A stretch of 64,000 nt of DNA from an uncultured Thermoplasmata archaeon. Its GTDB lineage: Archaea; Thermoplasmatota; DTKX01; GCA-020343715. The first letter of the stretch is position 1; every line of letters begins with the position of its first letter. Positions 27,718 through 57,169 of the stretch are shown in pieces. A model generated the notes under the pieces. The model had not been told where the DNA came from and did no database searches. It saw nothing but the letters and a program-made list of their open reading frames with translations. The stretch lies in assembly GCA_965369625.1 (NCBI GenBank), contig CBDUQW010000003.1, forward strand, positions 9,883 through 73,882. The letters run 5' to 3'. A program made the position numbers and the translations under genes.

Positions 27718-29727
27718 GTGGTCAGCGCTAGGGTGGTGCAGAGCTTGACGAAGTTAAGGATCGGAGTATACGTTTGCCATTGCGGTCACAACATCGGCGG
27801 TGTCGTCGATTCCCACGGGGTGGCGGAGTACGCGAAAGGCCTGGAAGGGGTTGTCGTTGCAAGGGACAACAAGTACACTTGCTCCGACCGTGGACAGGAC
27901 GAGATCAAGGTCGACATAAAGAAGCACAAGCTGAACAGGGTGGTCGTCGCCTCCTGCTCACCGAACCTCCACGAGAGGACATTCAGGAGGACGGTGGCGG
28001 ATGCCGGGCTCAACCCGTACCTTTTCCAAATGGTCAACATCCGTGAACAGGTCTCGTGGGTCCACGCTGACGATCACGACGCGGCGACCCGGAAGGCCAA
28101 GGACCTTGTCCGTATGGGTGTGGCGAGAGTGAGGTTGCTGGAGCCCCTCAAGGACCGGCGGGTGGAAATGGAGAGGTCGGTGATGGTCGTCGGCGGGGGT
28201 ATCTCGGGTATTGAGGCATCGCTACAGCTGGCGGCGCTGGGCATCAAGAGCTACCTGGTCGAGAAGACCCCAAGCATCGGCGGCCGGATGGCCCAGCTGG
28301 ACAAGACCTTCCCCACGACGGACTGCTCGATATGCATCCTTGCCCCCAAGATGGTGGAGGTGGCCTCCGAACCCAACATCGAACTGCTCACCTACACCGA
28401 GGTCGAGAACATCGAGGGTTACATCGGCAACTTCACCGTCACCCTCAGGAAGAAGGCCCGACACGTCGACCTGGACAAGTGCATCGGGTGCGGATCGTGC
28501 TCGGATGTGTGCCCGGTCGAGGTCCCCTCCGAGTTCGACATGGAGGTCGGCAACCGCAAGGCCGCCTACATACCGTTCCCCCAGGCCGTGCCGATAAAGT
28601 ACACCATAGACGAGGCCAACTGCCTCTACTTCAAGACCGGCAAGTGCCAGTTGTGCGTCGAGGCATGTCCCACCGATGCCATCGAGCACGACACCACCGA
28701 CGAGCTGGTGGACATCAAGGTGGGGTCCATCGTGCTGGCCACCGGTTTCGACCCGTACAAGCCCATGATCTCCGATTACCTGGGCTACGGAGAGTATCCC
28801 AACGTGATCACCGCGATGGAGTTCGAGCGGATCATCAACGCGTCGGGACCCACCAAGGGGCATGTCCTCAGGCCCTCGGACGGGAAGGTCCCCAAGACCT
28901 TCGCCTTCATCCAGTGTGTGGGGTCCCGGAACAGGAAGATCGGAAACGAGTACTGCTCGAACGTGTGCTGTATGTACACGATGAAGAACGCCCAGCTGAT
29001 CAAGGAGCACTACCCCGACGCAGTGGTGACGGTGTACTACATCGACATCCGTGCCCATGGCAAGGGCTTCGAGGAGTACTACCACCGACTCCGTGAGAAC
29101 TACCAGATCGAATACATCCGTGGCAGGCCGGCGAAGGTCTGGCAGAACGAGAGGACCAAGAACATCACCATCCGGGCCGAGGAGACCCTCCTCAACCTGA
29201 TCACCCAGAGGGAGTTCGACCTGGTCATCCTGTCCGTGGGCCTCGTTCCCGCAGAAGGCACCGACCAGCTCGTTAAAATGCTCAACCTGTCCAAGAGCAC
29301 CGACGGGTTCCTCCAGGAGGCACATCCCAAGCTCCGACCGGTGGAGACCACCACGGCAGGCGTCTTCCTAGCGGGGTGCGTCCAGGGACCCAAGGACATC
29401 CCCTCCTGCGTCGCCCAGGCCAGGGCGGCCGCCGCGGCTGCCGCTGGACCCATCCTGAAGGGCGAGTACGCCATCGAACCCCTGGTCGCCCAGGTCGACC
29501 AGGACAAGTGCATGGGCTGCGGCCTGTGCGTCGAAGTGTGCCCCTACGGGGCTCCCAGGCTCGTGGACCAGGAGGTTGGCCAGAAGGCGGAGATCCTTGA
29601 GGTGCTCTGCAGAGGTTGTGGCACGTGCGTGGCGGCATGCCCCTACCACGCCATCACCGCGGAGCAGTTCTCCGACGAACAGCTGGAACATGAGCTGATG
29701 GCCGCGCTCGAAGTGGAGGTGAAGTAG
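27718..29727 (+). CDS. hdrA: Heterodisulfide reductase subunit A, canonical architecture
   Basis: The N-terminal cluster domain is IGVYVCHCGHNIGGVVD ... VVASCSP. The FAD site is VVGGGISGIEASL. The HdrA signature is GGRMAQLDKTFPTTDCSIC. The inserted ferredoxin has CIGCGSCSDVCP and CQLCVEACP. It also has FIQCVGSRN..YCSNVCCMY and a C-terminal ferredoxin (CMGCGLCVEVCP, CRGCGTCVAACP). The exact start is uncertain. Confidence 0.92.
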   Translation: MVSARVVQSLTKLRIGVYVCHCGHNIGGVVDSHGVAEYAKGLEGVVVARDNKYTCSDRGQDEIKVDIKKHKLNRVVVASCSPNLHERTFRRTVADAGLNPYLFQMVNIREQVSWVHADDHDAATRKAKDLVRMGVARVRLLEPLKDRRVEMERSVMVVGGGISGIEASLQLAALGIKSYLVEKTPSIGGRMAQLDKTFPTTDCSICILAPKMVEVASEPNIELLTYTEVENIEGYIGNFTVTLRKKARHVDLDKCIGCGSCSDVCPVEVPSEFDMEVGNRKAAYIPFPQAVPIKYTIDEANCLYFKTGKCQLCVEACPTDAIEHDTTDELVDIKVGSIVLATGFDPYKPMISDYLGYGEYPNVITAMEFERIINASGPTKGHVLRPSDGKVPKTFAFIQCVGSRNRKIGNEYCSNVCCMYTMKNAQLIKEHYPDAVVTVYYIDIRAHGKGFEEYYHRLRENYQIEYIRGRPAKVWQNERTKNITIRAEETLLNLITQREFDLVILSVGLVPAEGTDQLVKMLNLSKSTDGFLQEAHPKLRPVETTTAGVFLAGCVQGPKDIPSCVAQARAAAAAAAGPILKGEYAIEPLVAQVDQDKCMGCGLCVEVCPYGAPRLVDQEVGQKAEILEVLCRGCGTCVAACPYHAITAEQFSDEQLEHELMAALEVEVK

Positions 29728-29728
29728 C

Positions 29729-30316
29729 ATGACCGGTGAGACCGAGCAGACCTTCATCGGAGCCTCCAAGACGACCATCGTCGAGGAGAAGGTCATCCTC
29801 GACGAGGAGTACGACCCGAATTTCGCCGCCGAGATCGTCAAGTACGGTGGGCGCGACGTCAAGACCTGTCACCAGTGCGGGAACTGCACCGGTGTCTGCC
29901 CTTACAGCCTCAAGACCGCCTACAAGACGCGCAACATCATCAAGATGTGCCAGCTGGGCCTCAAGAGCCTGGTGCTCCATACACCCTGGCTTTGTGCCAC
30001 ATGCTACCGTTGCTACGAGCACTGCCCCGAGGACATCAACGCCGCGGAGGTCATGATCGCACTGCGCCACATAGCCATCCGAGACGGGAACATCCCCGAT
30101 TTCATCGTCCGGGTGAGCAAGAACGTCGTCAAGTACGGTCAGAGCATCGCACCATCGCGAGAGGTGGAGGTGCTACGCGAGCAGCTAGAGCTGGGACCCC
30201 TGCCGTACGCCCGACCGAAGCACGCAAAGAACATCACCGAGATCCAGCACATCATAAGGGCTACGGGCTACGACGAGCTGATACACATCAGTGCCAGACC
30301 TGAGGAGGATGAGTGA
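29729..30316 (+). CDS. hdrC: Heterodisulfide reductase subunit C (divergent, 195 aa)
   Basis: It has CHQCGNCTGVCP and CATCYRCYEHCPEDI. It starts 1 nt after the hdrA stop. Confidence 0.88.
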   Translation: MTGETEQTFIGASKTTIVEEKVILDEEYDPNFAAEIVKYGGRDVKTCHQCGNCTGVCPYSLKTAYKTRNIIKMCQLGLKSLVLHTPWLCATCYRCYEHCPEDINAAEVMIALRHIAIRDGNIPDFIVRVSKNVVKYGQSIAPSREVEVLREQLELGPLPYARPKHAKNITEIQHIIRATGYDELIHISARPEEDE

Positions 30317-31241
30317 CATGACCTACGGACTCTTCATGGGATGCCTCATCCCCAACCGTTACCCCGGCATCGAGTGGGCGACCGAGTTCCTCCTCAATAA
30401 AAAGCAGCTCAACGTGCATGCTGACAGGATCGATGACTTCACCTGTTGTCCGGTCCCGGGCATCTTCTACTCCGCGGACAAGGAGACCTGGCTGGCGCTG
30501 GCGGCACGCAACCTCGTGTTGGCCCAGGAGAACGAGAAGGAGATCCTCACCCTGTGCAACGGATGCTACATGTCGCTGCACAAGGCTTCCGAGAAGCTAC
30601 AGGACCCGAAGCAGCGGTCGAGGACGAACAAGGTGCTGAAGGGAGTGGGCAAGCGCTACGTCGGTGAGGAGATCCCCACGGAAGGGCGTGTCAAGCAGTA
30701 CCGGCCCATCCAGGTCAAGCACCTGGTCGAGATCCTCATCCACGACGTGGGCCTCGAGAAGCTGGAGGAGAAGTTGGTCCATCCCCTCACGGGCCTCCGG
30801 GTGGCCGTGCACTACGGTTGCCATTACCTACGCCCCTCCGAGAACCACCAGATCGAGAACCCCAACCGACCCAGGTACATCGACGACATCGTCAAGGCGT
30901 GCGGCGCCACGTCGGTGGATTACGACGAGAAGCTCTCCTGCTGTGGTGCCGGCGGGGGCGTCCGCTCCCATGTCAAGGAGCTGGCCGACGCCCTCACCGA
31001 CGACAAGATAAAGAGCATCACCAAGGCAAGGGCCGACGTCATCGTGACCCCATGTCCCTTCTGCCTGCTGCAGTTCGATACGGCCCAGTCATCGCTTCCA
31101 GGGGTCAACATCCCCGCCATCCACCTCTCGAGCTTCGTGGCCCTCGCCTTGGGAGCCGACCCGCTGTTCCTGGGCTTCGACCTGCACAACATCTCGGTCA
31201 ATCCGCTGCTTCGGAAGCTGCGAAGGGGGGCGATAGCGTGA
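30309..31241 (+). CDS. hdrB: Heterodisulfide reductase subunit B (divergent, with an insertion)
   Basis: ATG 30309 follows GGAGG and overlaps the hdrC stop. It has FMGCLIPNRYPGIE, TCCPVPG, LCNGC, SCCGAGGG and PCPFCLLQF. Confidence 0.88.
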   Translation: MSDMTYGLFMGCLIPNRYPGIEWATEFLLNKKQLNVHADRIDDFTCCPVPGIFYSADKETWLALAARNLVLAQENEKEILTLCNGCYMSLHKASEKLQDPKQRSRTNKVLKGVGKRYVGEEIPTEGRVKQYRPIQVKHLVEILIHDVGLEKLEEKLVHPLTGLRVAVHYGCHYLRPSENHQIENPNRPRYIDDIVKACGATSVDYDEKLSCCGAGGGVRSHVKELADALTDDKIKSITKARADVIVTPCPFCLLQFDTAQSSLPGVNIPAIHLSSFVALALGADPLFLGFDLHNISVNPLLRKLRRGAIA

Positions 31242-31714: not shown

Positions 31715-34700
31715 ATGGCGGACAAGGCGATCGGGGCTGTGATGGTGGTCGGCGGAGGCATCGCTGGCACGCAAGCGGCCCTCGACCTGGCCGACGGCGG
31801 CTTCAAGGTCTATGTCATCGAGCGCAGCCCCTCCATCGGAGGCGTGATGGCGCAATTGGACAAGACCTTCCCGACCAACGACTGCTCGATGTGCATCCTG
31901 GCCCCGAAACTGGTGGACGCGGGAAGGCACCCCAACATCGAGCTCAAGATCCTCTCCGAGGTGACGGGGTTCAAGGGCAAGCCAGGTAACTTCAAGGTGG
32001 AGCTCACCCGGAAGACCCTCTCCGTCGACGAGGACAAGTGCACGGGCTGCGGCGAGTGCGCCGACATATGCCCTGTGGAGGGGACGAACCCCTTCGACGA
32101 GAACATCGGCGTCCGGAAGGCCATCTACGTGCCCTTCCCCCAGGCTGTGCCCCTGGTCTACACCATCGACAGGAGCATGTGCATAGGCTGCGGCGAGTGC
32201 GAGAAGTTCTGCGGGGCCAACGCCATCGTGTACGAGATGGAGGAGACGGTCACGGAGTCCATCAAGGTGGGCGCTGTCATCCTGGCCCCCGGCTTCGAGG
32301 AGTTCGACCCTTCGAAGCTCACCGCCTACGGATACAAGGACTTCCCCAACGTGGTCACCTCCATCGAGTTCGAGCGGATGATGAGCGCCTCGGGTCCCAC
32401 GGGCGGGCACATCCTCAGGCCCTCCGACGGCAGGACCCCCGATAACGTCGCCTTCCTACACTGCATCGGTTCGCGCGACGTCAGCCTGGGGATCACCTAC
32501 TGCTCTTCCGTCTGCTGCATGTACTCCCTCAAGGAGGCCATCATCGCCCAGGAGCACACACCGGGCCTCAAGACCCACCTGTTCGCGATGGACTTCCGCG
32601 CGGTGGGCAAGCAGTTCGAGGAATACAGGATCCGCGCCGAGAACGATCTGGGCATCAAGATCACAAGGAACAACCGCGTCGGTTCACTCGAGGAGGACCC
32701 CGTGACCCGGAAGCTCACGGTCAGGTACATCGAGGGGGACCATATATTGGACGAGGAGTTCGACATGGTCGTGCTCAGCGTCGGGCTGCGTCCCCCCATA
32801 AACGGTGACTACCTGGCACGCACCTTCGGGGTGGAGCTCAACGAGCACGGGTTCACCGCCCACTCCACGTTCAAGCCCCTCGAGACCAACGTCCCCGGGG
32901 TCTTCGTGGCCGGGGCCTTCAGATCGCCCAAGGACATCCCGGATACGGTGGCCGAGGCCTCCGGCGCCGCAGCCCTGGCCGCTGCGGTCGTGGTGGAGGG
33001 TCGAGGCGACCTCGTCACCGAGGTCGAGTACCCCGAGGAACGGGATGTCGAGGGCCAGGAGGCGCGTGTCGGGGTCTTCGTGTGCCACTGCGGCACCAAC
33101 ATCGGTGGTGTGGTCGACGTGCCCGGTGTCACGGAGTACGCCCGGGGCCTTCCTGGAGTGGTCTTCGCCGATGACAACCTATACACCTGCTCCCAGGACA
33201 CCAACAAGTACATCGCGAACATGATCAGGGAGCACGACCTCAACCGGGTCGTCGTGGCATCGTGCACACCCCGCACCCACGAGCCCCTGTTCCGGCAGAC
33301 GCTGAAGGAGGCCGGGCTCAACCCCTACCTTTTCGAGATGGCCAACATCCGGGACCACTGCTCGTGGATCCACATGCACGAGCCGAACGAGGCCACCGAG
33401 AAGTCCAAGGACCTGGTGCGTATGACCGTAGCGAAGGCCCGACTGCTGGAACCTCTCCAGAAGCACCGCATCCCCATCACGCCAAGGGCGCTGGTGATCG
33501 GCGGGGGACTTTCAGGCATGACAGCGGCCCTGGAGATCGCGGAGCAGGGTTTCGAGGTGGACCTCGTCGAGAAGACCAACGCCCTTGGTGGCAACCTTCG
33601 GAGGGTGACCCACAGCATCACTGGCGAGAAACCCCAGGACATCCTCAAGGAGACCATCGCTGCCATCAACGAACAGAGGCTCATAACCCTCCACACGGGT
33701 ACCGAGATCGAGATACTGAGCGGGTACATGGGCAACTTCGACGTGGTCCTCAAGGACGGAACCGCAATGAAGGTGGGGGCCATCATCGTCGCCAGCGGCG
33801 CCATCGAGTACAAGCCGACGGAGTACTACTACGGCAAGAACCCGAATGTCATCACCCAGCTGGAGCTGGAGGAGGAGATGACCAAGGGCGCCTTCGCCCC
33901 CAAGAACGTGGTCATCATCCAATGCGTAGGAGCCCGCGATGAGAACCATCCGAACTGCAGCCGCATCTGCTGCACCACGTCGGTGAAGAACGCCATCGCG
34001 CTCAAGAGGGCCAACATGAACACCAATGTCTACATCATCTACAAGGACATCCGGACCTACGGTTTCAACGAGGACGCGTACCTGGAGGCGGCCCGGCTCG
34101 GGGTCGTCTTCGCCCGCTACAGTGACGAGTCGAAACCCAAGCTCTCCTACACCAAGAAGGGTCTGGTCTTCCGCGTCCTTGACCGGTTCACCAACACCGA
34201 GATCACCATCGTCCCGGACCTGGTGGTCCTCAACGCTGCAACCCATCCCGACCCCAAGAACAAGGTGCTGGCCGGGTTGCTCAAGGTGCCCCTCACCCAT
34301 GAGGGGTACTTCCTGGAGGCCCACATGAAGCTGCGCCCAGTGGAGTTCGCCACCGACGGTATCTTCGCATGCGGCCTGGCACTGGGTCCGAAGTTCATCA
34401 GCGAGTCCATCAACCAGGCGACGGCGGCGGCGGGGAAGGTGGCGGCGGTGCTCTCCAAGGAGTTCGCCGAGGCCGAGGCCAACACCGCCGAGGTTGACGC
34501 CGAGATCTGCACCGGCTGCGGTACCTGCATCCAGGTGTGCCCGTACAGTGCCATCGAGCGGGGCGAGGACCGCAAGGCGGTGGTGAACGCCGTCCTGTGC
34601 AAGGGCTGCGGCACATGCGTGGCGACCTGCCCCGAGAAGGCCATCGACATCCATCACTTCACCAACGAGCAGCTGTACCAACAGGCCATCGCCCTCATCC

Positions 34701-34720
34701 AGAACGGAGGTGGTGCATGA
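31715..34720 (+). CDS. Long two-module HdrA-like flavoprotein L1 (1001 aa)
   Basis: The domain order is FAD module A with inserted ferredoxin, an internal HdrA N-domain-like cluster domain, FAD module B, then a C-terminal 2x[4Fe-4S] ferredoxin. Module A has VVGGGIAGTQAAL, GGVMAQLDKTFPTNDCSMC, CTGCGECADICP, CIGCGECEKFC and CIGSRD..YCSSVCCMY. The internal domain is VGVFVCHCGTNIGGVVD..VVASCTPRTHEPLF..NIRDHCSW. Module B has VIGGGLSGMTAAL and IIQCVGARD..CSRICC. The C-terminal ferredoxin has CTGCGTCIQVCP and CKGCGTCVATCP. Confidence 0.88.
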   Translation: MADKAIGAVMVVGGGIAGTQAALDLADGGFKVYVIERSPSIGGVMAQLDKTFPTNDCSMCILAPKLVDAGRHPNIELKILSEVTGFKGKPGNFKVELTRKTLSVDEDKCTGCGECADICPVEGTNPFDENIGVRKAIYVPFPQAVPLVYTIDRSMCIGCGECEKFCGANAIVYEMEETVTESIKVGAVILAPGFEEFDPSKLTAYGYKDFPNVVTSIEFERMMSASGPTGGHILRPSDGRTPDNVAFLHCIGSRDVSLGITYCSSVCCMYSLKEAIIAQEHTPGLKTHLFAMDFRAVGKQFEEYRIRAENDLGIKITRNNRVGSLEEDPVTRKLTVRYIEGDHILDEEFDMVVLSVGLRPPINGDYLARTFGVELNEHGFTAHSTFKPLETNVPGVFVAGAFRSPKDIPDTVAEASGAAALAAAVVVEGRGDLVTEVEYPEERDVEGQEARVGVFVCHCGTNIGGVVDVPGVTEYARGLPGVVFADDNLYTCSQDTNKYIANMIREHDLNRVVVASCTPRTHEPLFRQTLKEAGLNPYLFEMANIRDHCSWIHMHEPNEATEKSKDLVRMTVAKARLLEPLQKHRIPITPRALVIGGGLSGMTAALEIAEQGFEVDLVEKTNALGGNLRRVTHSITGEKPQDILKETIAAINEQRLITLHTGTEIEILSGYMGNFDVVLKDGTAMKVGAIIVASGAIEYKPTEYYYGKNPNVITQLELEEEMTKGAFAPKNVVIIQCVGARDENHPNCSRICCTTSVKNAIALKRANMNTNVYIIYKDIRTYGFNEDAYLEAARLGVVFARYSDESKPKLSYTKKGLVFRVLDRFTNTEITIVPDLVVLNAATHPDPKNKVLAGLLKVPLTHEGYFLEAHMKLRPVEFATDGIFACGLALGPKFISESINQATAAAGKVAAVLSKEFAEAEANTAEVDAEICTGCGTCIQVCPYSAIERGEDRKAVVNAVLCKGCGTCVATCPEKAIDIHHFTNEQLYQQAIALIQNGGGA

Positions 34721-42300: not shown

Positions 42301-42385
42301 CATGGAGCAGAAGGGGTACAAGGACAACCAGCTGGTGGCGATGATCGAAGCTGCCCTAGAGGACATCGAAGAGGAGGTGATCTGA
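39338..42385 (+). CDS. Long two-module HdrA-like flavoprotein L3 (1015 aa)
   Basis: A GTG start overlaps the D2-X stop (ATG 39344 is an alternative). The motif set matches L1 and L2. The C-terminal ferredoxin has CDGCGICRPICE and CKGCGACVGACP. Confidence 0.88.
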   Translation: MKMTDDKKAGSGKGPIGSVMVVGGGISGMQSSLDLADSDILVYLVDNKPTIGGVMAQLDKTFPTNDCAMCIMAPKLVATGRHHNIQLITNTDIRSCEGEPGNFKVTLTQNPRRVDPEKCTGCGVCALKCTVEAIDAFQENTMQRGAIYVDYPQAVPLVYKIDRDRCIGCGVCEGECKAKAIVYDEEEKEIVLNVGSIILSPGFDEFEPGRLTEYGYGRYLNVLSSIEFERLLSATGPHRGLVLRPSDGDIPKKVAFLQCVGSRDDRIDAGFCSSVCCMYSLKEAVIAQEHTPGLSAHIFFMDVRAFGKEFDDYVTRAQNEFHIGITRHTRVPQVTEVPGSRNLMLSYIEKGELREEEFDMVVLAVGLHAPKSAGMISDAFGIDLNKYNFAATGTFSPLETSRPGVFVSGAFSGPKDIPTTVAEASGAAGKAQEIISSARGTLVTEKEFPPEIDVIDQEPRIGVFVCHCGINIGGVVDVPGVVEYAKTLPGVVYSEHNLYTCSQDTQERIQELIGEHDLNRVIVASCTPRTHEPLFQNTIREGGLNRYLFEMANIRDQCSWIHMHMPAEATRKSKSLVRMAVAKATYLEPLETAEIPVTRAALVLGGGLTGLTAALSLGEQGFTTYLVEREKELGGNLRRIRTTVTGEDPQAKLKELVAAVKKEPNIELITGAEIENMGGYVGNFETQIKGREETIETGAIIIATGATEMKPDGLFLYGKDKRVLTQLEFEGELADTGKAPSSVVMIQCVGSREEDRPWCSRVCCTNAVKNAIRVKEMSPDTPVYILYRDLRTYGFKEDFYRDASELGVIFIRFDEDKPPKVKATSKGIAVMVEDMTMGKTIGLSADRLVLSSAILPQDDNELIAQFLKVPLSKDGFFLEAHMKLRPVDFATEGVYLAGLCHSPKFIDESIAQAVGAVARAVTIISKETLTSEGIIAMVNEDICDGCGICRPICEYNAIEIDDEKKLAIINEGLCKGCGACVGACPSGAMEQKGYKDNQLVAMIEAALEDIEEEVI

Positions 42386-42828
42386 TGGCCGCTGCCACGG
42401 ACAAGAAGGCGGATGACAACACCTTCCGCCCGAGGATCATCGTCTTTTGCTGCAACTGGTGCTCCTACGCGGGCGCGGACCTGGCTGGCGTGAGCCGGCT
42501 CCAGATGCCCTCGGACTTCAGGGTCATCAGGGTGATGTGCTCGGGTCGTGTCGACCCCGAGCACATCCTCAAGGCCTTCTCCCTGGGCGCCGACGGGATC
42601 CTCGTGGCGGGCTGCCACCCGGCGGACTGCCACTACATCGGCGGCAACTACAGGACCCGTCGTCGCATCCCGTTGCTCCAGATCATGATCGAGCAGTTCG
42701 GGATGGACAGGTCCAGGCTGCAGCTGGAGTGGATCTCGGCCTCGGAGGGAGAACGCTTCCAGCAGGTCATCACCAACTTCATCCAGCACATCAAGGGGCT
42801 GGGCCCAAGCCCTGTAGGGGGTGGATAG
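42385..42828 (+). CDS. mvhD: MvhD-type [2Fe-2S] protein (D3, plain)
   Basis: A TGATG overlap joins it to L3. It has CCNWCSYAGADLAG, VMCSGRVDP and GCHPADCHY. It directly precedes the stand-alone X ORF and mvhGA. Confidence 0.88.
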   Translation: MAAATDKKADDNTFRPRIIVFCCNWCSYAGADLAGVSRLQMPSDFRVIRVMCSGRVDPEHILKAFSLGADGILVAGCHPADCHYIGGNYRTRRRIPLLQIMIEQFGMDRSRLQLEWISASEGERFQQVITNFIQHIKGLGPSPVGGG

Positions 42829-43216
42829 ATTGAAGAAACTCAGCGATAGGATGGACGCGGCGATGGAGGTCATGGACGACGAGCGGGTCCGCTGGCTATT
42901 GGGGAAGAAGCTCACCATCACCCGGGAGGAGAACGTCTTCGGCAAGCAGATCGCAGAGGCCAGGTACGACCTGATCCTCCACAACGCTGCCCAGGCCGAG
43001 CTTTACAGGAAGCTCATCGCAGACGAGATCCGCGACACACCGAGGTCGACCGTGGACATCGCAGAGGCGCTGGACATGGAACCCTCCGAGGTGCTCCGTC
43101 ACCTCATCGCCATGAGGAAGTGGCGATTGATCGAGGAGGCCGGGAGGAAGGACGGGTACGTCCTGTTCCGAACGATAGAACCCGCGGAAGAGACCGATAA
43201 GGGCTCAGGAGTGTGA
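42821..43216 (+). CDS. Stand-alone homologue of the X extension (helical plus winged-helix-like, 131 aa)
   Basis: ..ERVRWLLGKKLTITREENVFGKQIAE.. and PRSTVDIAEALDMEPSEVLRHLIAMRKWRLIEEAGRKDGYVLFR align by eye with the C-terminal halves of D1-X, D2-X and D4-X. The start overlaps the D3 stop. The start codon is uncertain (GTG 42821, TTG 42830 or ATG 42851). Confidence 0.7.
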   Translation: MDRLKKLSDRMDAAMEVMDDERVRWLLGKKLTITREENVFGKQIAEARYDLILHNAAQAELYRKLIADEIRDTPRSTVDIAEALDMEPSEVLRHLIAMRKWRLIEEAGRKDGYVLFRTIEPAEETDKGSGV

Positions 43217-43220
43217 ACCC

Positions 43221-44228
43221 ATGGTAGACAAGATCAAACTGGCACTATACTGGGGCGGCACCTGCGGCGGTTGCGACGTCGCGGTACTGGACATCGACGA
43301 GAACATCTTGGACGTGGCCGCCATCGCGGACATCGTCTTCTGGCCCATCGCCATGGACTTCAAGGTAAGCGACGTGGAGGCGATGGCGGATGGGGAGATA
43401 ACCTGCACCATCTACAACGGCGTCATCAGGAACACCGAGAACCTGCACATGGCCAAGCTCCTGCGGAAGAAGTCCGTCCTGATGGTGGCCTTCGGCTCGT
43501 GCGCCTGCTTCGGCGGCATCGCAGGGCTGGCCAACGTGACCAACAGGGAGCAGATCCTCCGGAAGGTCTACAAGGACACCATTTCCACGGACAACCCCGA
43601 CTTCGTCACCCCCCAGCCCGTGCTGGAGGTGCCCGAGGGTACCCTCACGCTGCCGGAACTGTTCGACACCGTGGTCTGCGTCGACGATGTGGTGGACGTG
43701 GACTACTACGTCCCCGGTTGCCCGCCCACCACCAACCTGATCATGGACTTCCTCGGGGCCGTCAAGGCCTTCGTCCTCGAGGGCACGCCCCTTCCCCCGA
43801 AGGGGACCGTCATCGCCTCGGACAAGACGCTCTGCGACGAGTGCCCGAGGGAGAAGAAGGACAAGATGCTCACCCGCATCTACAGGCCCCACGAGATCCA
43901 GATCGACCCCGAGACGTGCATCCTGGACCAGGGGGTCATCTGCCTGGGTCCGGCCACCAGGGCCGGTTGCGGGGCCAAATGTATTAATGCGAACATGCCT
44001 TGCCGCGGCTGTATGGGGCCGACAGCGGCAGTCATGGACCATGGTGGTAGCATGCTTGCCGCACTGACATCCATCCTCAACATCACCGACCGCGAGCACG
44101 AGATGTCGGAGGAGGACATCTACGAGATAGTCTCGCAGGTCAAGGACCCGTTGGGGACGTTCTACCGGTTCTCCATGCCGAAGTCGCTGCTAAAGCGCAC
44201 GGTCAAAGAGAAGAGCGGAGGGAAGTAA
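43221..44228 (+). CDS. mvhG: F420-non-reducing (group 3c) [NiFe] hydrogenase small subunit
   Basis: The N-terminus is LALYWGGTCGGCDVAVLD. Cysteine clusters are GSCACFGG, PGCPP, CDECP, CLGPATRAGCGAKC and MPCRGC. It is adjacent to mvhA. Confidence 0.9.
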   Translation: MVDKIKLALYWGGTCGGCDVAVLDIDENILDVAAIADIVFWPIAMDFKVSDVEAMADGEITCTIYNGVIRNTENLHMAKLLRKKSVLMVAFGSCACFGGIAGLANVTNREQILRKVYKDTISTDNPDFVTPQPVLEVPEGTLTLPELFDTVVCVDDVVDVDYYVPGCPPTTNLIMDFLGAVKAFVLEGTPLPPKGTVIASDKTLCDECPREKKDKMLTRIYRPHEIQIDPETCILDQGVICLGPATRAGCGAKCINANMPCRGCMGPTAAVMDHGGSMLAALTSILNITDREHEMSEEDIYEIVSQVKDPLGTFYRFSMPKSLLKRTVKEKSGGK

Positions 44229-45740
44229 ATGACTGGACCGATAATGCCAGGTGAGACCCACAAGGTGGAGGGCAAGCGGATCACGATAGATCCCATCACC
44301 CGCCTCGAGGGACACGGGAAGATAGAGATCTTCCTCGACGACGACGGGAACGTGGCCAACACGTACTTCCAGATACCCGAACTGCGGGGCTTCGAGCAGT
44401 TCTGCATAGGCAGGCCCATCGAGGAGCTGCCGCGCATCACCCCGCGCCTGTGCGGCGTGTGCCCGGGCGCCCACCACGTGGCCTCGACGAAGGCCCTGGA
44501 CCGCGTGTACAAGACCCACCCGACCCCTGCGGCCGAGCACCTCAGGCGCCTGTTCTACGAGGCGCACTTCATCCACAGCCACATCGCCCACTTCTTCGCC
44601 CTCGCGGCCCCCGACTTCGTCCTGGGTCCCGGCGCTCCCAAGGCGTCGCGCAACGTGCTGGGCGTGATCGACGCCGTCGGCCTCGAGATCGGCGGCGCCG
44701 TCCTGAAGGCCCGCTCCGACGCCCAGTGGATACAGGAGATGCTGGGAGGCAAGGCCACCCATCCCGTCAACGGCCTCCCCGGAGGCGTGAGCAAGGGCAT
44801 GAACGAGGAGGAGTGGGAGAAGGTCAAGACCATCGCCGGCGAGCTGCTGGAGTTCTCCAAGTTCACCCTCGGGAGCGTCCTGACCCCCATCGTCCTCGAG
44901 AACCAGGACTACCTCAACATCATCCTGAACAAGGACCTCTATTACCAGGAGTCCTATTACATGGGGTTGGTGGACGAGAACGACAAGGTGAACTTCTACG
45001 ACGGCACCGTCAAGGTCGTGGACCCCAGCGGCAAGGAGTTCGCCAACTTCCATCCCGACGACTACCTGGAGCACGTCTCCGAGCACGTGGAGCCCTGGTC
45101 CTACCTCAAGTTCCCCTTCCTGAAGAAGATCGGATGGAAGGGCTTCAAGGAGGGACCCGACAGCGGGATCTTCCGCGCCGCGCCCCTGGCCCGCCTCAAC
45201 GTGGCCGAGGGGATGGCCACCCCCCTGGCCCAGAAGGCCTACGAGGCGTACATCAATACCCTCGGAAAGCCCGTGCACCACACCCTGGCGATGCACTGGG
45301 CCAGGATCATCGAGCTGCTCTACTCCGCGGAGCACCTGGTGGAACTGGCCAACGACGACATCTGCCTCTCGGACGACCTGCGTGCCGAGCTGGGAGAGCC
45401 TGGCGAGGGCATCGGCATCCTCGAGGCCCCGCGCGGCACCCTCATCCATCATTACTGGGCAGACTCGGAGGGCATGACCACGGACCTCAACCTCATCGTC
45501 TCGACGGCCCACAACAACGCGGCCATCTGCATGGGGACCAAGAAGGTGGCCACCGCCCTCATCAAGGACTTCCAGGTCTCTGACGGCCTGCTGAACATGG
45601 TGGAGATGTGCTTCAGGGCGTACGACCCGTGCTTCGCCTGCGCGACACACAGCGTGCCAGGGGAGCTTCCCCTCATGATCAGCATCCGTAACGCGGACGG
45701 GACAGTGCGTGAGACCATCTCTCACAGCGGGGGCAAGTGA
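44229..45740 (+). CDS. mvhA: F420-non-reducing [NiFe] hydrogenase large subunit
   Basis: The N-terminal Ni-Fe ligand motif is RLCGVCPGAHH. The C-terminal motif is DPCFACATH, followed by a 29-aa extension expected to be removed by the maturation protease. Confidence 0.93.
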   Translation: MTGPIMPGETHKVEGKRITIDPITRLEGHGKIEIFLDDDGNVANTYFQIPELRGFEQFCIGRPIEELPRITPRLCGVCPGAHHVASTKALDRVYKTHPTPAAEHLRRLFYEAHFIHSHIAHFFALAAPDFVLGPGAPKASRNVLGVIDAVGLEIGGAVLKARSDAQWIQEMLGGKATHPVNGLPGGVSKGMNEEEWEKVKTIAGELLEFSKFTLGSVLTPIVLENQDYLNIILNKDLYYQESYYMGLVDENDKVNFYDGTVKVVDPSGKEFANFHPDDYLEHVSEHVEPWSYLKFPFLKKIGWKGFKEGPDSGIFRAAPLARLNVAEGMATPLAQKAYEAYINTLGKPVHHTLAMHWARIIELLYSAEHLVELANDDICLSDDLRAELGEPGEGIGILEAPRGTLIHHYWADSEGMTTDLNLIVSTAHNNAAICMGTKKVATALIKDFQVSDGLLNMVEMCFRAYDPCFACATHSVPGELPLMISIRNADGTVRETISHSGGK

Positions 45741-52400: not shown

Positions 52401-52468
52401 GGATGAGCCACTTCACAGAGGACCAGATCCTGGCGACGATGAGATCATTACTGCTGGAGGCCATCTGA
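49439..52468 (+). CDS. Long two-module HdrA-like flavoprotein L4 (1009 aa), the closest paralogue of L2
   Basis: It has the same motif set as the other long copies. Long stretches are near-identical to L2, including the perfect 362-bp block. The C-terminal ferredoxin is divergent (CRGCGRCREACV, CKGCGTCAVTCP). Confidence 0.88.
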   Translation: MTAKGKTGAVLVVGGGISGMQSALDLGDAGFRVYLVERKPTIGGAMAQLDKTFPTNDCSMCIMAPKLVAVDKHPNIEIISNAEVEKVTGRPGRFLVSLIKHPRYVDEDKCTGCGQCSMKCPVEAIDMYNEGLMTRAAIYVDYPQAVPLKFRIDKERCIGCGICEGECLANAIDFNQKEELMKVRVGSIILSPGFDEFDPTALREYGYGQYPNVVSSIEFERMLSASGPFRGVVMRPSDGKVPEKVAFIQCVGSRDEHIGHNYCSSVCCMHAIKEAMIAQEHTEGLSSHIFFMDIRAFGKEFDDYVTRARDEFGIGITRGNRVADITQNPKTKDLRVRYIEGGDIKYERFNLVVLSVGLHAPRTAKDLSAAFGIDLNRYNFAETRTFSPLETNVPGIFVSGAFSGPKDIPTTVAEASGAAAKAAADIHEARNTLLTEVQLPPERDVMGEEPRIGVFVCHCGINIGGVVDVPDVVEYAKSLPGVVYAEHNLYTCSADTQERIKERIVKLDLNRVVVASCTPRTHEPLFRSTVREAGLNPYLFEMANIRDQCSWVHMHEHEAASLKAKDLVRMAVSRACLLEPLQRAVIPVTQRALVIGGGVSGMTAALDIADQGFTTYLVEREKKLGGIARHLHTTLQGDDVQTELERMISKVWAHPNIQVIIGSEIEDVKGSVGNFSTKLRGNEETLEHGVILVTTGGMEYKPEEHLYGKDDRVVTQLEFEEELVNADPEDLPSTAVFIQCVGCRNEERSYCSRVCCGTSVKQALLLKKERPDAQVFVLYRDLRTYAFKEDAYKEAAEAGVVFIRFDEDREPKVSKDKSKDGPLEVMVYEELLEENLRIEADRLILAAAILPPEDNERLAQLLKLPLSKDGFFLEAHMKLRPLDFATDGVFLAGLAHSPKYLDECIAQASGAAARALCILSRPTFEAEGIVASVETALCRGCGRCREACVYGAIDIEEVEPEVFISRVNEALCKGCGTCAVTCPSKAIRMSHFTEDQILATMRSLLLEAI
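50153..50514 (+). repeat. 362-bp block 100% identical to 36248-36609
   Basis: Base-by-base comparison; see the partner feature at 36248-36609. Confidence 0.9.
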
Positions 52469-54108
52469 TGTCCGCGTTTGAACCTGAGAGCCTGGCCCTG
52501 TGCTGCAACTGGTGCGGCTATGCGGGGGCGGACCTCGCCGGGGTCAGCAGGATCCAATACCCGCCCAACATCAGGATCATGAGGATCATGTGCTCGGGAA
52601 GGGTGGAGATCAACCACCTGTTGACAGCGCTCATGTTCGGGGCGGACGGCGTCATGGTGGTGTGCTGCCACCCCGGGGACTGCCACTACGTCTCTGGCAA
52701 CGAGAGGGCGGAGAAGAACTTCGAAACGACCAAGGAGCTGCTCCGATACCTTGACATGGAGGACCGGGTCCGAATGGAGCCCATCTCGGCTGCCGAGGGG
52801 ACCAAGTTCGGCAAGGTGGTCTCCGAGTTCACCGAGGACCTGAGGAAGCTGGGCCCCAACCCCATGAAGAAGGTCCGACACCGCTTCTCTCCGGACCGAA
52901 AAGGCATCACCCAAGAGGAGTTCCAAGGGAACATGGCAGATATTGTGGAAATCACGGGGGTGTACGACTGCCTTGAATGCGGCAAGTGCGCCGCAAGCTG
53001 CCCCAACACCAGGATGGACCACAATTACTCCCCGATGCTCACGGTCGAAAGGGTCCATAGGGGGCTGATCGACGAGATAGCTGAGGACCCGGGCATCTGG
53101 ACCTGCATGACATGCGGGACCTGCAGTTACCGCTGTCCCTCCGGTGTTGACTACACGGGTTTCATAAGACGCGTGAGGGCGCTCAAGGTGGGGACCGGGG
53201 GAAGGTGCTCCCACGGGGGCGTCTTCACCACGCTGGCGAAACTGATGTCGAACCCCGAGGTCATCCAGAAGGACCGGCTCCGATGGGTGTCGGACGACCT
53301 CTCGGTCTCGAAGAAGGGCGACCTGGTGTACTTCACAGGCTGCCTGCCCTACTTCGACCCCATCTTCAGGGACATCAACGTCCATTGCACCGAGATCGCG
53401 AGGAGCACGGTGCGAATACTGAACAAGGCGGGCATCACGCCCGCTGTCATGGAGGACGAGCGGTGCTGCGGCCATGACCTCCTCTGGAGCGGGGAGGACG
53501 AGGGCATGGTCCAGGACCTGGCACGGATCAATCTCGGGGCCCTGAAGGAAGCCGGTGCCAAGAGGGTGGTCATGAGCTGTCCAGAATGCTACAGGACCTT
53601 CGTGAAGGACTATCCCGAGTACGCAAGCGGGAGCGCCATGGACTTCGAGGTGCTGCACACCTCCGAGCTATTCGCGGAGCTGATCGAGGAGGGGAAGCTG
53701 GAGTTCGACGGCAAGGCCGGGGACATCGTGCCTATCACCTACCAGGACCCGTGCAGGCTGGGGCGCCATCTGGGTGTGTTCGACCAGCCACGGACCGTCC
53801 TGGAGAGCCTCCCCGGCGTTGAGCTCCGTGAGATGGAGGAAAGCCGCGGAAACGCGATCTGCTGCGGGACCTCGGCATGGATGAACTGCGGCACCTTCTC
53901 GAAGCGCGTACAGATGGATCGGTTACGGGAGGCGGCCGCGACGGACGCAGGGACCCTTGTCACCGCATGTCCCAAGTGCATGATCCACTTCAACTGCACA
54001 CTCTACGAGCCCGCCGACCCGGACCTGCCGACCAAGCCGGACATCACGGTCAGGGACCTCTCAACGTTCATGGCCGAGGCGATGGGCCTCAAGGGGGAAT
54101 CCGGATGA
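52468..54108 (+). CDS. Triple fusion of MvhD domain, HdrC-like 2x[4Fe-4S] domain and HdrB-like double CCG domain (MvhD-HdrD-like, D5)
   Basis: A TGATG overlap joins it to L4. The MvhD part has CCNWCGYAGADLAG, IMCSGRVE and CCHPGDCHY. The ferredoxin part has CLECGKCAASCP and CMTCGTCSYRCP. CCG domain 1 has FTGCLPYF..ERCCGHD..MSCPECY and CCG domain 2 has QDPCRLG..AICCGTS..TACPKCM. The track ORF start at 52147 is a run-on. Confidence 0.85.
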   Translation: MSAFEPESLALCCNWCGYAGADLAGVSRIQYPPNIRIMRIMCSGRVEINHLLTALMFGADGVMVVCCHPGDCHYVSGNERAEKNFETTKELLRYLDMEDRVRMEPISAAEGTKFGKVVSEFTEDLRKLGPNPMKKVRHRFSPDRKGITQEEFQGNMADIVEITGVYDCLECGKCAASCPNTRMDHNYSPMLTVERVHRGLIDEIAEDPGIWTCMTCGTCSYRCPSGVDYTGFIRRVRALKVGTGGRCSHGGVFTTLAKLMSNPEVIQKDRLRWVSDDLSVSKKGDLVYFTGCLPYFDPIFRDINVHCTEIARSTVRILNKAGITPAVMEDERCCGHDLLWSGEDEGMVQDLARINLGALKEAGAKRVVMSCPECYRTFVKDYPEYASGSAMDFEVLHTSELFAELIEEGKLEFDGKAGDIVPITYQDPCRLGRHLGVFDQPRTVLESLPGVELREMEESRGNAICCGTSAWMNCGTFSKRVQMDRLREAAATDAGTLVTACPKCMIHFNCTLYEPADPDLPTKPDITVRDLSTFMAEAMGLKGESG

Positions 54109-55436
54109 ACAACGTTGACGATGACGTGCTGATAATCGGCGCTGGGATCGCCGGCATCCAGGCCTCGTTGGACCTGGCCACGGCTGGGATCCAGGTCAGA
54201 TTGGTGGAGAAGGAGCCCAGCATCGGAGGCCGCATGGCTCAACTCGACAAGACGTTCCCCACCAACGACTGTTCCATCTGCATCCTGGCGCCCAAGATGC
54301 TCGAGTGCTTCGACCACGAGAACATCGACGTGATGACCTACTCCGAGGTGAAATCAGTGAGGGGCGAGGTCGGGAACTTCACCGTGGAGGTGCTGAAGAA
54401 GCCCAGATACGTGGACGCCGAGAGGTGCACAGGCTGCGGTGCGTGCATGGAGAAGTGTCCAACGAAGGTGCCGGACGAGTTCGACATGAACCTGCGCATG
54501 CGGAAGGCCATATACTTTCCCTTCGCCCAGGCAGTGCCCCGGATAGCTACCATCGACGAGGAGAACTGCCTCTACTTCAAGACGGGCAAGTGCAAGATAT
54601 GCGAGAAGGTCTGCCAGGCCAAGGCCATCGACCACGATATGAAGCCCGAGGTGGTGACCCTCAAGGTGGGCGTCATCATCGTTGCCTCGGGGTTCGAGAC
54701 CTACATGCCTCACGAGCTGGAGGAGTACGGGTACGACCGGTTCGCCAACGTGGTCACGGCGATGGAGTTCGAGCGGATCATCAATGCGGCAGGTCCCACG
54801 GGCGGGCACCTGCAGCGGCTCTCGGAGGACCACGAAAGGCCCAGGAGGCTAGCGTTCATCCAGTGCGTCGGCTCACGCGATACCCGTGTCAAGAGGCCCT
54901 ACTGCTGCGCTGTGTGCTGCATGTACTCCACCAAGGAGGCGATGCTTGCGAGGGAGCATTACTCTGATATAGAGTCCACCATTTTCTACACGGACATCAG
55001 GGCATTCGGGAAGGGGTTCACGGAGTACATCGAACGCGCCAAGAGGGAGTACGGGGTCAAGTACATCCGTGCCAAGCCTGGCGAGATCAGGGAGGAAAGG
55101 GACACCAAGAACCTGGCCATCTACTACCGGGACCCGGACACGCAGCACATCGAGGCCTTCGAGGCGGATTTCGTGGTGCTCGCCACCGCCCTAATACCCC
55201 GTAAGGGCGTGGAGGACCTCGCCAAGGTCCTGGGCGTGGAGCTGGACGAGTTCAACTTCTTCAGATCGCCGGACCCGGACGTCTTTCCGATGGAGACCAC
55301 GGTGAGAGGGATCTTCTCGGCGGGGTACTGTCAGAAACCGATGGACATACCCGAGGCGGTGGCCGAGGGCAGCGCGGCGGCCGCAAGGGCGATCGAGACG
55401 ATGAGCATGCAGGTGAACGGGGGTGAGACCGCATGA
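54105..55436 (+). CDS. Split long HdrA, part a: FAD module A with inserted ferredoxin (L5a, 443 aa)
   Basis: An ATGA overlap joins it to D5. It has IIGAGIAGIQASL, GGRMAQLDKTFPTNDCSIC, CTGCGACMEKCP, CKICEKVCQ and FIQCVGSRD..YCCAVCCMY. It ends where module A ends in L1-L4. Confidence 0.88.
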   Translation: MNNVDDDVLIIGAGIAGIQASLDLATAGIQVRLVEKEPSIGGRMAQLDKTFPTNDCSICILAPKMLECFDHENIDVMTYSEVKSVRGEVGNFTVEVLKKPRYVDAERCTGCGACMEKCPTKVPDEFDMNLRMRKAIYFPFAQAVPRIATIDEENCLYFKTGKCKICEKVCQAKAIDHDMKPEVVTLKVGVIIVASGFETYMPHELEEYGYDRFANVVTAMEFERIINAAGPTGGHLQRLSEDHERPRRLAFIQCVGSRDTRVKRPYCCAVCCMYSTKEAMLAREHYSDIESTIFYTDIRAFGKGFTEYIERAKREYGVKYIRAKPGEIREERDTKNLAIYYRDPDTQHIEAFEADFVVLATALIPRKGVEDLAKVLGVELDEFNFFRSPDPDVFPMETTVRGIFSAGYCQKPMDIPEAVAEGSAAAARAIETMSMQVNGGETA

Positions 55437-57169
55437 GCGATGCGGGGTCGGCCGATCCAGGGTCCGAACCGAGGATAGGCGTGTTCGTCTGCCATTGCGG
55501 GACGAACATCGGGGGCGTCGTCGACGTCCCAGCGGTGGTGGAGTACACAAAAGGCCTACAACACGTCGTACACGCGGAGGGTAACCTCTATACCTGTGCT
55601 TCGGACGGCATCGCCGCCATCCAACATGCGATCAAGGAGCACGACCTCAACAGGGTCGTCGTGGCGTCGTGCACGCCACGGACCCACTCGACGCTGTTCA
55701 TGAGGGCGTGCGCCGATGCGGGCCTCAACCCCTACCTCTTCGAGTTCGTCAACATCCGGGACCAGTGCTCCTGGGTCCACATGCGCGAACCGGAGAAGGC
55801 CACCGAGAAGGCCAAGGACCTGGTGAGGATGGGGGTGGCCAAGGCGGCTCTGCTGGAGCCCCTGGAGAAGATAGAGATCTCCATGGAGCCGGTGACGTTG
55901 GTGATCGGCGGGGGCGTGGCAGGGCTCAAGGCAGCAAGCGTCATCGGGAACAGCGGGTTCGAGGTCTACCTGGTGGAGAAGGAGGCCGAGCTCGGTGGGA
56001 TGGTCAGGAGCTTCTATCGCGTCTACCCGTCCAACAGGTTGGCCTCGGAATTCCTCGAACCCATCATCAGGTCCGTGGAGGAGAACGACAACGTCCATGT
56101 CCTCACCTCCACCATGGTCAAGGATGTCAAGGGTTACGTGGGCAACTTCGAGGTGACGGTCGCTACATCGGGCAATCGAGGTGAAACGACGTTCAAGGTC
56201 GGCACGATCATCGTCGCCACGGGCGCTGAGGTGCTCAGACCCGACGGCCTATACGGTTACGGGGAGTACACCAAGGTGATGAACCAGATGGAGCTCGACC
56301 ATTACATCAGCAAGGGCGACATCCAGGACCTGCAAAGCGTTGTGATGATCCAGTGCTGTGGTACCAGGGACGAGAATAGGCTGACCTATTGCTCCAGGGT
56401 CTGCTGTATGGCCGCGCTCAAGAACGCGTTGGCGATCAAGGAGATGGACCCGACCTCGGACGTGACCATACTTTACAGGGATGTCCAGACCCAAGGGATC
56501 CGTTACGAGGCGCTCTACAGGGCAGCGAGGCAGGCCAGGGTACGGTTCATCAGATACAGTCCGGCAAGGGAACCCAAGGTGGAGGCAGTGACATCCCCCG
56601 ACGGCATGTTGAGGGTCGATTTCTTCGATGAGCTGATAGGTCGCCAGTCCAGCATCGAGTGCGATCGCGTCGTGCTGTCCTCTCCCCTCGTCCCGCACCA
56701 CGACAGTCTGGACCTGTCGAAGATCCTGCGGGTGCCGAGGGGCAAGGACAAGTTCTTCTTCGAGGCGCACGTGAAGCTGAGGCCTGTAGACTTCGCCACG
56801 GACGGTATATTCCTCTGCGGCACCGCGCATGGGCCAAAGGACATCACCGACTCCATCATCCAGGCACTGGGTGCGGCGGGGCGTGCCCTTGCTCTCCTCA
56901 GGAACGAACGGATAGAGGGCGAACCCATCGTGTCCATCGTAGACGAGAGCCTCTGCACCGGTTGTGGCACGTGCATCGAACTATGCCCCTATGGAGCGAT
57001 AGAGCGGACAGAGGATGACAAGGCGAGGGTGGTCGAGGCGCTCTGCAAGGGGTGCGGCGTCTGCACCTCCAGCTGCCCAGAGTTCGCGATCAACCTCCAG
57101 GGCTTCACCAACGAACAGATCCTTGCCCAGATGCGTTCCGCGCTGCAGGATGTCCCAGAAGCGAATTAG
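55433..57169 (+). CDS. Split long HdrA, part b: cluster domain, FAD module B and C-terminal ferredoxin (L5b, 578 aa)
   Basis: An ATGA overlap joins it to L5a. It has IGVFVCHCGTNIGGVVD..VVASCTPRTHSTLF..NIRDQCSW, VIGGGVAGLKAAS, MIQCCGTRD..YCSRVCCM, CTGCGTCIELCP and CKGCGVCTSSCP. Confidence 0.88.
   Translation: MSDAGSADPGSEPRIGVFVCHCGTNIGGVVDVPAVVEYTKGLQHVVHAEGNLYTCASDGIAAIQHAIKEHDLNRVVVASCTPRTHSTLFMRACADAGLNPYLFEFVNIRDQCSWVHMREPEKATEKAKDLVRMGVAKAALLEPLEKIEISMEPVTLVIGGGVAGLKAASVIGNSGFEVYLVEKEAELGGMVRSFYRVYPSNRLASEFLEPIIRSVEENDNVHVLTSTMVKDVKGYVGNFEVTVATSGNRGETTFKVGTIIVATGAEVLRPDGLYGYGEYTKVMNQMELDHYISKGDIQDLQSVVMIQCCGTRDENRLTYCSRVCCMAALKNALAIKEMDPTSDVTILYRDVQTQGIRYEALYRAARQARVRFIRYSPAREPKVEAVTSPDGMLRVDFFDELIGRQSSIECDRVVLSSPLVPHHDSLDLSKILRVPRGKDKFFFEAHVKLRPVDFATDGIFLCGTAHGPKDITDSIIQALGAAGRALALLRNERIEGEPIVSIVDESLCTGCGTCIELCPYGAIERTEDDKARVVEALCKGCGVCTSSCPEFAINLQGFTNEQILAQMRSALQDVPEAN

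Follow-up and report, generated by a model that had tools for sequence, protein, structure and literature searches.

L1, the product of one open reading frame in a 64,000-nucleotide stretch of contig CBDUQW010000003.1 from an uncultured Thermoplasmata archaeon (the whole stretch is called the window below), is a type II HdrA, a protein in which two HdrA-like halves are fused into a single chain. L1 and its three paralogues in the window, L2, L3 and L4, most probably work as intramolecular pseudo-heterodimers with one bifurcation unit, located at the flavin of the N-terminal half (module A). L1 is built from HdrA domains with complementary motifs in its two halves, resembles HdrA in fold, is syntenic with mvhD genes and belongs to a widely distributed group of proteins. 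A sequence-only reading of this DNA had implied that such an architecture was novel; it had in fact already been described, under the names fused HdrA3/4 (PMC9012536) and type II HdrA (PMC12054007). L1 is a further example of this published class, which is common in archaea and anaerobic bacteria, and its architecture is not new.

Domain anatomy of L1

Two thioredoxin-reductase-like FAD domains on one polypeptide, the character by which type II HdrA is recognized, are present in L1, with Pyr_redox_2 and FAD motifs at about residues 8-430 and 590-900 (Pfam). The reading frame is preceded immediately 5' of its start codon by a ribosome-binding-like sequence, GGAGGTGAGG. When the PDB was searched with phmmer, taking the 654-residue HdrA of Methanothermococcus thermolithotrophicus (5odc_A) as the reference structure, L1 matched this chain with an E value of 4e-218; the match falls into three pieces whose order is not the canonical one. 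Residues 10-373 correspond to HdrA 147-510, the thioredoxin-reductase-like FAD domain including the inserted ferredoxin; residues 448-620 correspond to HdrA 2-174, the N-terminal cluster domain (N-domain) with the first part of another FAD domain (229 bits); and residues 855-993 correspond to HdrA 507-648. The gap between the last two pieces is filled by a blastp alignment in which residues 333-665 of the window's own canonical HdrA pair with L1 685-996 (36% identity, E 2e-48). For the canonical residues 245-332, which make up the inserted ferredoxin, module B, the C-terminal half, has nothing equivalent either by blastp or in the alignment. Module A aligns only to canonical residues 154-565, and the N-domain together with module B aligns to canonical residues 14-244 and 333-665.

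The motifs of the two halves complement each other. Module A carries the GGGIAG motif, DKTFPTNDCSMC (residues 49-60) with C57 and C60, the equivalents of Cys194 and Cys197, the eight cysteines of the inserted ferredoxin (C109/112/115/119 and C156/159/162/166) and the cluster site CIGSRD..YCSSVCC, and it is devoid of an N-domain and of a C-terminal ferredoxin. A conserved linker of about 20 residues connects the halves in the alignments. The N-domain motifs CHCG, YTCS, ASCTPR and DHCSW precede module B, with CHCGTNIGG at residues 457-465 and ASCTPRTHEPLF at residues 515-526. Module B itself contains GGGLSG (residues 596-601), further FAD-binding features (E619, GG625-626 and T880/G882/G887/P892), the cluster site QCVGARD..NCSRICC, QCVGARDENHPNCSRICC (residues 736-753) and a C-terminal ferredoxin with two CxxCxxCxxxCP motifs (932-942 and 962-972), and it has neither the DKTFPTNDC motif nor an inserted ferredoxin. 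A segment alignment was made of the module A and module B segments of L1-L4 (four of each), the canonical HdrA and an unfused pair of genes in the same window, S_A and S_B. S_A is A6-like: it carries DKTFPTNDCSIC as well as the inserted ferredoxin and shares 47% identity with L1 9-412. S_B is A12-like, having an N-domain and a C-terminal ferredoxin but lacking both the motif and the inserted ferredoxin; it shares 49% identity with L1 447-997. With this pair as comparators, the sequence of module A classifies as A6-like and that of module B with the N-domain as A12-like. Module A alone has the Cys197 equivalent, and the N-terminal cluster domain accompanies module B alone, which is the complementarity described by Chadwick et al. 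for fused and tandem HdrA.

The sequence-only reading of L1-L4 therefore stands as far as the anatomy is concerned. Its domain order (module A, cluster domain, module B, C-terminal ferredoxin) is the same in all four proteins by alignment, and the internal cluster domain is the N-terminal domain of canonical HdrA, as it had stated. Location of the motifs in L1 places DKTFPTNDC and the inserted 2x[4Fe-4S] ferredoxin in module A only, and its account of module B, with GxGxxG and QCVGxRD..CSRxCC and lacking both of these elements, agrees with the alignment with canonical HdrA. It had also allowed that module B might be a misread GltD/NfnB-type domain. Pfam detects no Fer4_20 (PF14691) or other GltD-type element and no NAD(P)H-binding insert in L1-L4, and module B can be aligned with HdrA from end to end (blastp, E 2e-48, with a Foldseek match to 5odc_A, see below), so that a GltD/NfnB identity, as in type III HdrA or HdrL-like proteins, is rejected. 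An identity of L1-L4 with HdrA2, the MvhD-fused type Ia, was likewise rejected, since Pfam finds no FlpD domain in them and the NCBIfam HdrA2 model (NF040770) scores L1 at 993 bits, under its cutoff of 1100. The NCBIfam HdrA equivalogs NF041778 (720, cutoff 1400) and NF041891 (697, cutoff 1300) also score L1 below their cutoffs, and L1 is therefore only an 'HdrA family protein', the name that NCBI also gives to its relatives.

Relation to published HdrA classes

Type II HdrA was defined by Lyu, Yu and Lu (2025), who describe 176 sequences with class A3 as the commonest, interpret the type as a fusion of A6 and A12, and draw on a genome set that includes Methanomassiliicoccales (PMC12054007). 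They report that 75% of type II proteins keep K409 and E356 in each of the two domains, and they suggest two bifurcation sites in one protein; L1-L4 all carry equivalents of these residues in both domains. Chadwick et al. (2022) described tandem and fused HdrA genes with a complementary distribution of Cys197 and the N-terminal domain, and section 15 of that paper interprets fused HdrA3/4 as its own heterodimeric partner and places the HdrA of Moorella in the fused class (PMC9012536). The words fusion, fused, tandem and duplication are absent from the text of a bioRxiv preprint on HdrA evolution.

L1 resembles type II A3/A4, that is, fused HdrA3/HdrA4, in its two FAD domains, its A6-like N-terminal half, its A12-like C-terminal half and its association with mvhD. 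However, the published type II clusters, with an emphasis on anaerobic methanotrophic archaea (ANME) and Methanosarcinales, include FdhB and a non-catalytic molybdopterin protein (PMC12054007; PMC9012536), whereas the context of L1 in a Thermoplasmata-related archaeon comprises hdrACB, four mvhD/type II units and mvhGA. The order of the halves is reported in two ways: a sentence of Chadwick et al. puts the N-domain half first and the Cys197 half at the C terminus, and Lyu et al. and all sequences examined here have the A6-like half first. Either the halves are swapped in that sentence (PMC9012536), or ANME possess a fused form with permuted halves. The tandem HdrA5/6 and HdrA12/13 of ANME share the complementary split of L1 but as two genes (PMC9012536), and S_A/S_B is a pair of the same kind.

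The HdrA of Moorella thermoacetica also belongs to the fused class and is encoded beside mvhD and hdrBC (PMC5861303; PMC9012536); the review by Buckel and Thauer credits Mock et al. (2014) with the finding of two FAD in this protein, a subunit of the MetFV-HdrABC-MvhD complex (PMC5861303). Unlike L1, it is bacterial and linked to methylene-tetrahydrofolate reductase and NADH, and its collinearity with L1 is judged from the literature and from the Bacillota relatives at loci L066 and L077. The canonical homodimer (PDB 5ODC; also 7BKB and 8RVU) has the same four domain types as L1 and the same FAD and cluster motifs, with 36-50% identity per segment and template modelling (TM) scores of 0.76-0.97. 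In contrast to the homodimer, L1 uses one chain for two protomers and has a single N-domain, which is internal, a single inserted ferredoxin and a single C-terminal ferredoxin.

Conservation of the two flavin sites

In an alignment of 68 full-length relatives, the ligand cysteines and FAD-motif residues of both halves are invariant or nearly so, and GxGxxG is invariant in both. Module A is invariant (68/68) at G13/G15/G18, C57, C60, E220, K273 and C250/263/267/268, and the N-domain cysteines are invariant or conserved in 67 of the 68. The equivalents of E356 and K409, which occupy the flavin-N5 positions, are E220 and K273 in module A of L1 and E719 and K758 in module B (the codons of the latter two at about 33869-33871 and 33986-33988 of the window), and L1-L4 keep them in both modules. 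Across the alignment, these residues are present in module A of every relative, whereas module B has the Glu in 35 and the Lys in 36 of the 68, with Gly (31/68) replacing the Glu and Ala (30/68) the Lys. About 45% of the aligned relatives have lost Glu and Lys together in module B, and none has lost them in module A. Among 48 module B sequences from the window and the public loci described below, 30 have Glu with Lys and 11 have Gly and Ala together (loci recorded for these states include L003-L011, L013, L067 and L073); the carriers of Gly and Ala include syntenic counterparts of L1 in other Thermoplasmata. This asymmetry of conservation supports module A as the probable essential flavin site, and the loss of Glu and Lys from module B in so many relatives suggests that a second site is dispensable for the core function of the family.

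Predicted structure

L1 was modelled with AlphaFold2 on the basis of the 68-sequence alignment; the model has a mean predicted local distance difference test score (pLDDT) of 85.9 and a predicted TM score (pTM) of 0.88. Outside the C-terminal tail, the only stretches with pLDDT under 50 are residues 51-57, which include C57, and residues 548-551, which include C549; these two cysteine-bearing loops may form a shared cofactor site that is left unmodelled. The first Foldseek matches of the model in the PDB are HdrA chains. The top match is 5odc_A (TM normalized to the target 0.76, 653 columns, 38% identity), and the match ranked seventh, 8rwn_A, an HdrA core, superposes with a TM (target) of 0.97 and 1.3 A root mean square deviation over 430 columns (49% identity). 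Judged by length and identity, the 8rwn_A match would represent module A, and the 5odc_A match the N-domain, module B and the C-terminal ferredoxin. HdrA-like proteins of sulfur oxidizers and thioredoxin reductases were matched with far weaker scores. The Foldseek matches identify both halves as HdrA folds.

A pTM of 0.88 for a multidomain chain of 1001 residues argues indirectly for a defined packing of module A against module B in the model. The sequence-only reading had expected that joining two FAD modules covalently would change the geometry of the dimer. On the contrary, the complementary halves, the unfused pair in the same window and the pTM together suggest that the fusion keeps the canonical dimer geometry in an asymmetric form. 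In the PDB, the best sequence matches (phmmer) are all HdrA chains of about 650 residues, with no chain of about 1000 residues of the type II class among them, and literature searches aimed at the structure or biochemistry of type II HdrA returned nothing beyond the papers cited here and no structural report.

A probable single bifurcation unit at the module A flavin

In published accounts of HdrA, the [4Fe-4S] cluster of the N-domain is part of the low-potential route that leads from FAD to the inserted ferredoxin, obtains a ligand or a contact at position 197 from the partner protomer, and is carried by a mobile domain that contacts the flavin in alternation with MvhD (PMC9012536; PMC13518236). 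When this path is applied to the complementary domains of L1, only one complete bifurcation unit can be assembled. We propose that an A6-like HdrA is here covalently joined to an A12-like HdrA, and that the polypeptide would reproduce the canonical homodimer with one copy of each accessory domain retained. The cysteine motifs predict 2 FAD and 7 [4Fe-4S] clusters, as against 2 FAD and 12 clusters in the homodimer. MvhD, which is encoded next to L1 and bears a [2Fe-2S] cluster, would dock on the side of module B that carries the N-domain as well as the C-terminal ferredoxin, and Cys60 of module A, the Cys197 equivalent, would complete the internal N-domain cluster. This cluster would connect the flavin of module A to the sole inserted ferredoxin, the presumed low-potential exit to ferredoxin, and the flavin of module A is for this reason the probable bifurcating centre. 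The clusters of the thioredoxin-reductase domains would lead to HdrC and HdrB as the high-potential exit. The flavin of module B may serve as a scaffold or a relay, and it may be catalytically competent in the copies of the window, which keep both Glu and Lys. We infer the ligation of a cluster across the modules, the electron path and the role assigned to each flavin by analogy with the canonical complex.

Several observations weigh against this proposal. L1-L4 retain the FAD-binding motifs as well as the Glu and Lys of module B, and a second flavin may therefore be active in them; Lyu et al. favour two bifurcation sites for type II in their Discussion (PMC12054007); the genes of the window do not reveal whether the organism makes the heterodisulfide of coenzyme M and coenzyme B (CoM-S-S-CoB); and Chadwick et al. 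give the halves of HdrA3/4 in the reverse order (PMC9012536). The first two of these would be accounted for if both flavins bifurcated, in series or in parallel, with an electron stoichiometry different from that of (HdrABC)2. However, module B has no Cys197-completed N-domain cluster and no inserted ferredoxin of its own, so that no low-potential exit can be identified for it, and the Glu and Lys are missing from module B in the relatives counted above, among them the syntenic Thermoplasmata counterparts of L1. Bifurcation at both flavins is therefore regarded as rather unlikely.

A related scenario is restricted to organisms in which all type II copies keep Glu and Lys. There, the second flavin, in module B, would be active, and the four HdrA/MvhD units of the window, together with HdrABC and MvhAG, would form alternative or higher-order complexes with two coupled bifurcations or with different donors. 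This too appears improbable. If it is true, the Gly/Ala relatives would be single-site enzymes, and the alternation of Glu/Lys with Gly/Ala would be a sequence marker of two mechanistic subclasses of fused HdrA.

Gene neighbourhood and the unfused pair

The genes around L1 (Table 1) form a translationally coupled string of hdrA-hdrC-hdrB, mvhD1-L1, mvhD2-L2, mvhD3-L3 and mvhD4, in which stop and start codons overlap or abut, and each type II gene of the window has an mvhD as its partner. About 390 bp lie between mvhD4 and mvhG, which with mvhA encodes [NiFe] hydrogenase subunits. Downstream of mvhA follow, in this order, an HdrB-like gene, mvhD5, L4, a triple fusion and the unfused pair. L2, L3 and L4 are collinear with L1 and 55-57% identical to it, and are 63-80% identical among themselves over their full length; L3 is the best match for the Mvh-linked copy of Methanomassiliicoccales. 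Within 25 kb the complementary halves thus occur fused in a single gene and also divided between two coupled genes, and S_A/S_B, adjoining four fused copies, constitutes a natural split control.

Table 1. Coordinates, in window positions, of L1, its domains and the associated genes
Feature	Position	Strand	Remarks
canonical (type I) hdrA (669 aa, 27718-29727), hdrC, hdrB	27718..31241	+	Pfam; directly 5' of mvhD1, overlapping stop/start codons
mvhD1, 158 aa	31238..31714	+	FlpD E 6e-54; stop codon abuts the L1 start codon
L1, type II (fused) HdrA	31715..34720	+	open reading frame from ATG to TGA, 1001 aa
L1 module A, aa 1-445	31715..33049	+	A6-like FAD domain (by sequence), inserted 2x[4Fe-4S] ferredoxin
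L1 internal HdrA N-terminal cluster domain, aa 446-590	33050..33484	+	C457, C459, C492, C517, C549 conserved
L1 module B, aa 591-1001	33485..34720	+	second FAD domain and C-terminal 2x[4Fe-4S] ferredoxin
mvhD2, long MvhD, 271 aa	34717..35532	+	FlpD E 5e-46; start overlaps the L1 stop (ATGA)
L2, type II HdrA paralogue, 1006 aa	35534..38554	+	57% identical to L1
mvhD3, long MvhD, 261 aa	38556..39341	+	between L2 and L3
L3, type II HdrA paralogue, 1015 aa	39338..42385	+	followed by mvhD-mvhG-mvhA
mvhD4 (147 aa), then mvhG (43221-44228), mvhA (44229-45740)	42385..45740	+	Pfam FlpD, Oxidored_q6, NiFeSe_Hases
stand-alone HdrB-like CCG-domain gene	46283-47140		between mvhA and the L4 cluster
L4, type II HdrA paralogue, 1009 aa	49439..52468	+	80% identical to L2
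MvhD-HdrC-HdrB triple fusion	52468..54108	+	3' of L4; FlpD, Fer4 and CCG in one gene
unfused pair S_A (54105-55436) and S_B (55433-57169)	54105..57169	+	stop/start codons overlap

The pairing with mvhD bears on a further explanation, in which the flavin of module B, exposed by the missing partner domains, is the entry point of a two-electron donor, for instance NAD(P)H or F420H2. Proposals of this kind exist for Moorella, with NADH, and for HdrA2. Such a role would be compatible with the Moorella complex, which oxidizes NADH and whose HdrA reportedly contains two FAD (PMC5861303), and with the space near FAD that Lyu et al. discuss as permitting direct binding of F420 in HdrA2B2C2 (PMC12054007). 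However, the constant company of mvhD, with L3 followed in addition by mvhGA, points to protein-mediated electron input, the [4Fe-4S] site of module B sits at the position of the NADPH-binding motif of thioredoxin reductase, and relatives that need NAD(P)H appear to gain a separate GltD-like insert. Direct donor entry at module B is thus quite unlikely.

Three of the five MvhD genes are of a long form (261-274 aa), namely mvhD2, mvhD3 and mvhD5 (48625-49449). The long form has a C-terminal extension of about 120 residues with a conserved VVRLRQ(R/K)N segment, for which Pfam returned helix-turn-helix matches below threshold only and the PDB no sequence match past residue 139; a long MvhD form comes after type II hdrA in bacteria too, at loci of Desulfomonile and others. 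The product of mvhD5 is without the CNWCSY cysteines. Matches to the triple fusion stand directly after type II hdrA or its mvhD in many loci of Thermoplasmata and Thermodesulfobacteriota, and tblastn matches to the stand-alone HdrB-like gene lie directly upstream of type II hdrA in many bacterial loci. In the distant upstream part of the window (466-4902, 4903-9921 and the region 11105-18220), two giant predicted surface proteins with beta-helix, Glucodextran_B and Ig-like domains are encoded, together with an AglB/STT3 oligosaccharyltransferase that contains CarboxypepD_reg and SdrD_B repeats and whose length, 2371 residues, seems unusual in an AglB. PurP-type DUF1246/DUF1297 domains also occur among the upstream genes and, like the AglB/STT3, point to an archaeon.

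Distribution among archaea and anaerobic bacteria

A large protein search scored at least 8000 candidates, all with E values of 1e-50 or lower, and the best 120 of these relatives measure 992-1051 aa and cover at least 97% of L1, except for one protein of 1697 aa. A scan of one genome per GTDB species retained 78 distinct loci, and module A, N-domain and module B are collinear in all 78. The archaeal loci belong to Thermoplasmata, to many Methanomassiliicoccales and to Bathyarchaeia; further loci were found in Thermodesulfobacteriota (Desulfomonile, Syntrophaceae), Planctomycetota, WOR-3, Latescibacterota and Bacillota, among the last of which is Desulforamulus putei DSM 12395, a cultured organism. 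The closest public loci are those of the 'Methanobacteriota archaeon' metagenome-assembled genomes CSMAG_707 and CSMAG_327 (94% identity) and of an uncultured Thermoplasmata archaeon (76%). A merger of adjacent A6 and A12 genes by a sequencing or assembly error might be imagined, as an unfused A6/A12 pair does occur in the same window. Nevertheless, four independent fused paralogues, the near-uniform length of the best relatives, the conserved linker and the collinear homologues in archaea and bacteria, including cultured D. putei, rule out an assembly or frameshift artefact, which is left with a vanishingly small probability.

An mvhD lies directly 3' of the type II gene in nearly all loci that reach past that gene. 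The loci of Methanomassiliicoccales have the order type II hdrA, mvhD, mvhG, mvhA, corresponding to L3, and in Thermoplasmata loci the counterpart of L1 follows hdrACB-mvhD. Some relatives combine a type II HdrA with a GltD/NfnB-like module (Fer4_20 and an NAD-binding Pyr_redox_2) in 1481-1697 aa, the longest being P0009 (1697 aa). The D. putei cluster consists of hdrC, hdrB, a gene for such a GltD-bearing type II protein of 1481 aa (L066, 5524-9969), an ordinary type II gene of 1018 aa directly downstream of it, and mvhD; a MetFV context like that of Moorella was not found at this cluster.

Implications

HdrA is a model subunit for flavin-based electron bifurcation and an obligate homodimer in the solved complexes. 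To the type II class the window contributes mainly an example rich in paralogues and a clue from conservation. Two features appear to go beyond the published accounts consulted, namely the presence of an unfused pair beside fused copies and the loss of the flavin-N5 residues confined to module B. Type II proteins hard-wire an asymmetric dimer and are well suited to the questions of which flavin is the bifurcating one and whether a single half is enough, and the window, with a canonical HdrA, four paralogues of the fused form and an unfused pair in a single operon region, is a compact natural comparison set for such questions. Finally, the Mvh-linked HdrA in the many Methanomassiliicoccales loci of the scan is of the fused type, which bears on models of the energy metabolism of these archaea.

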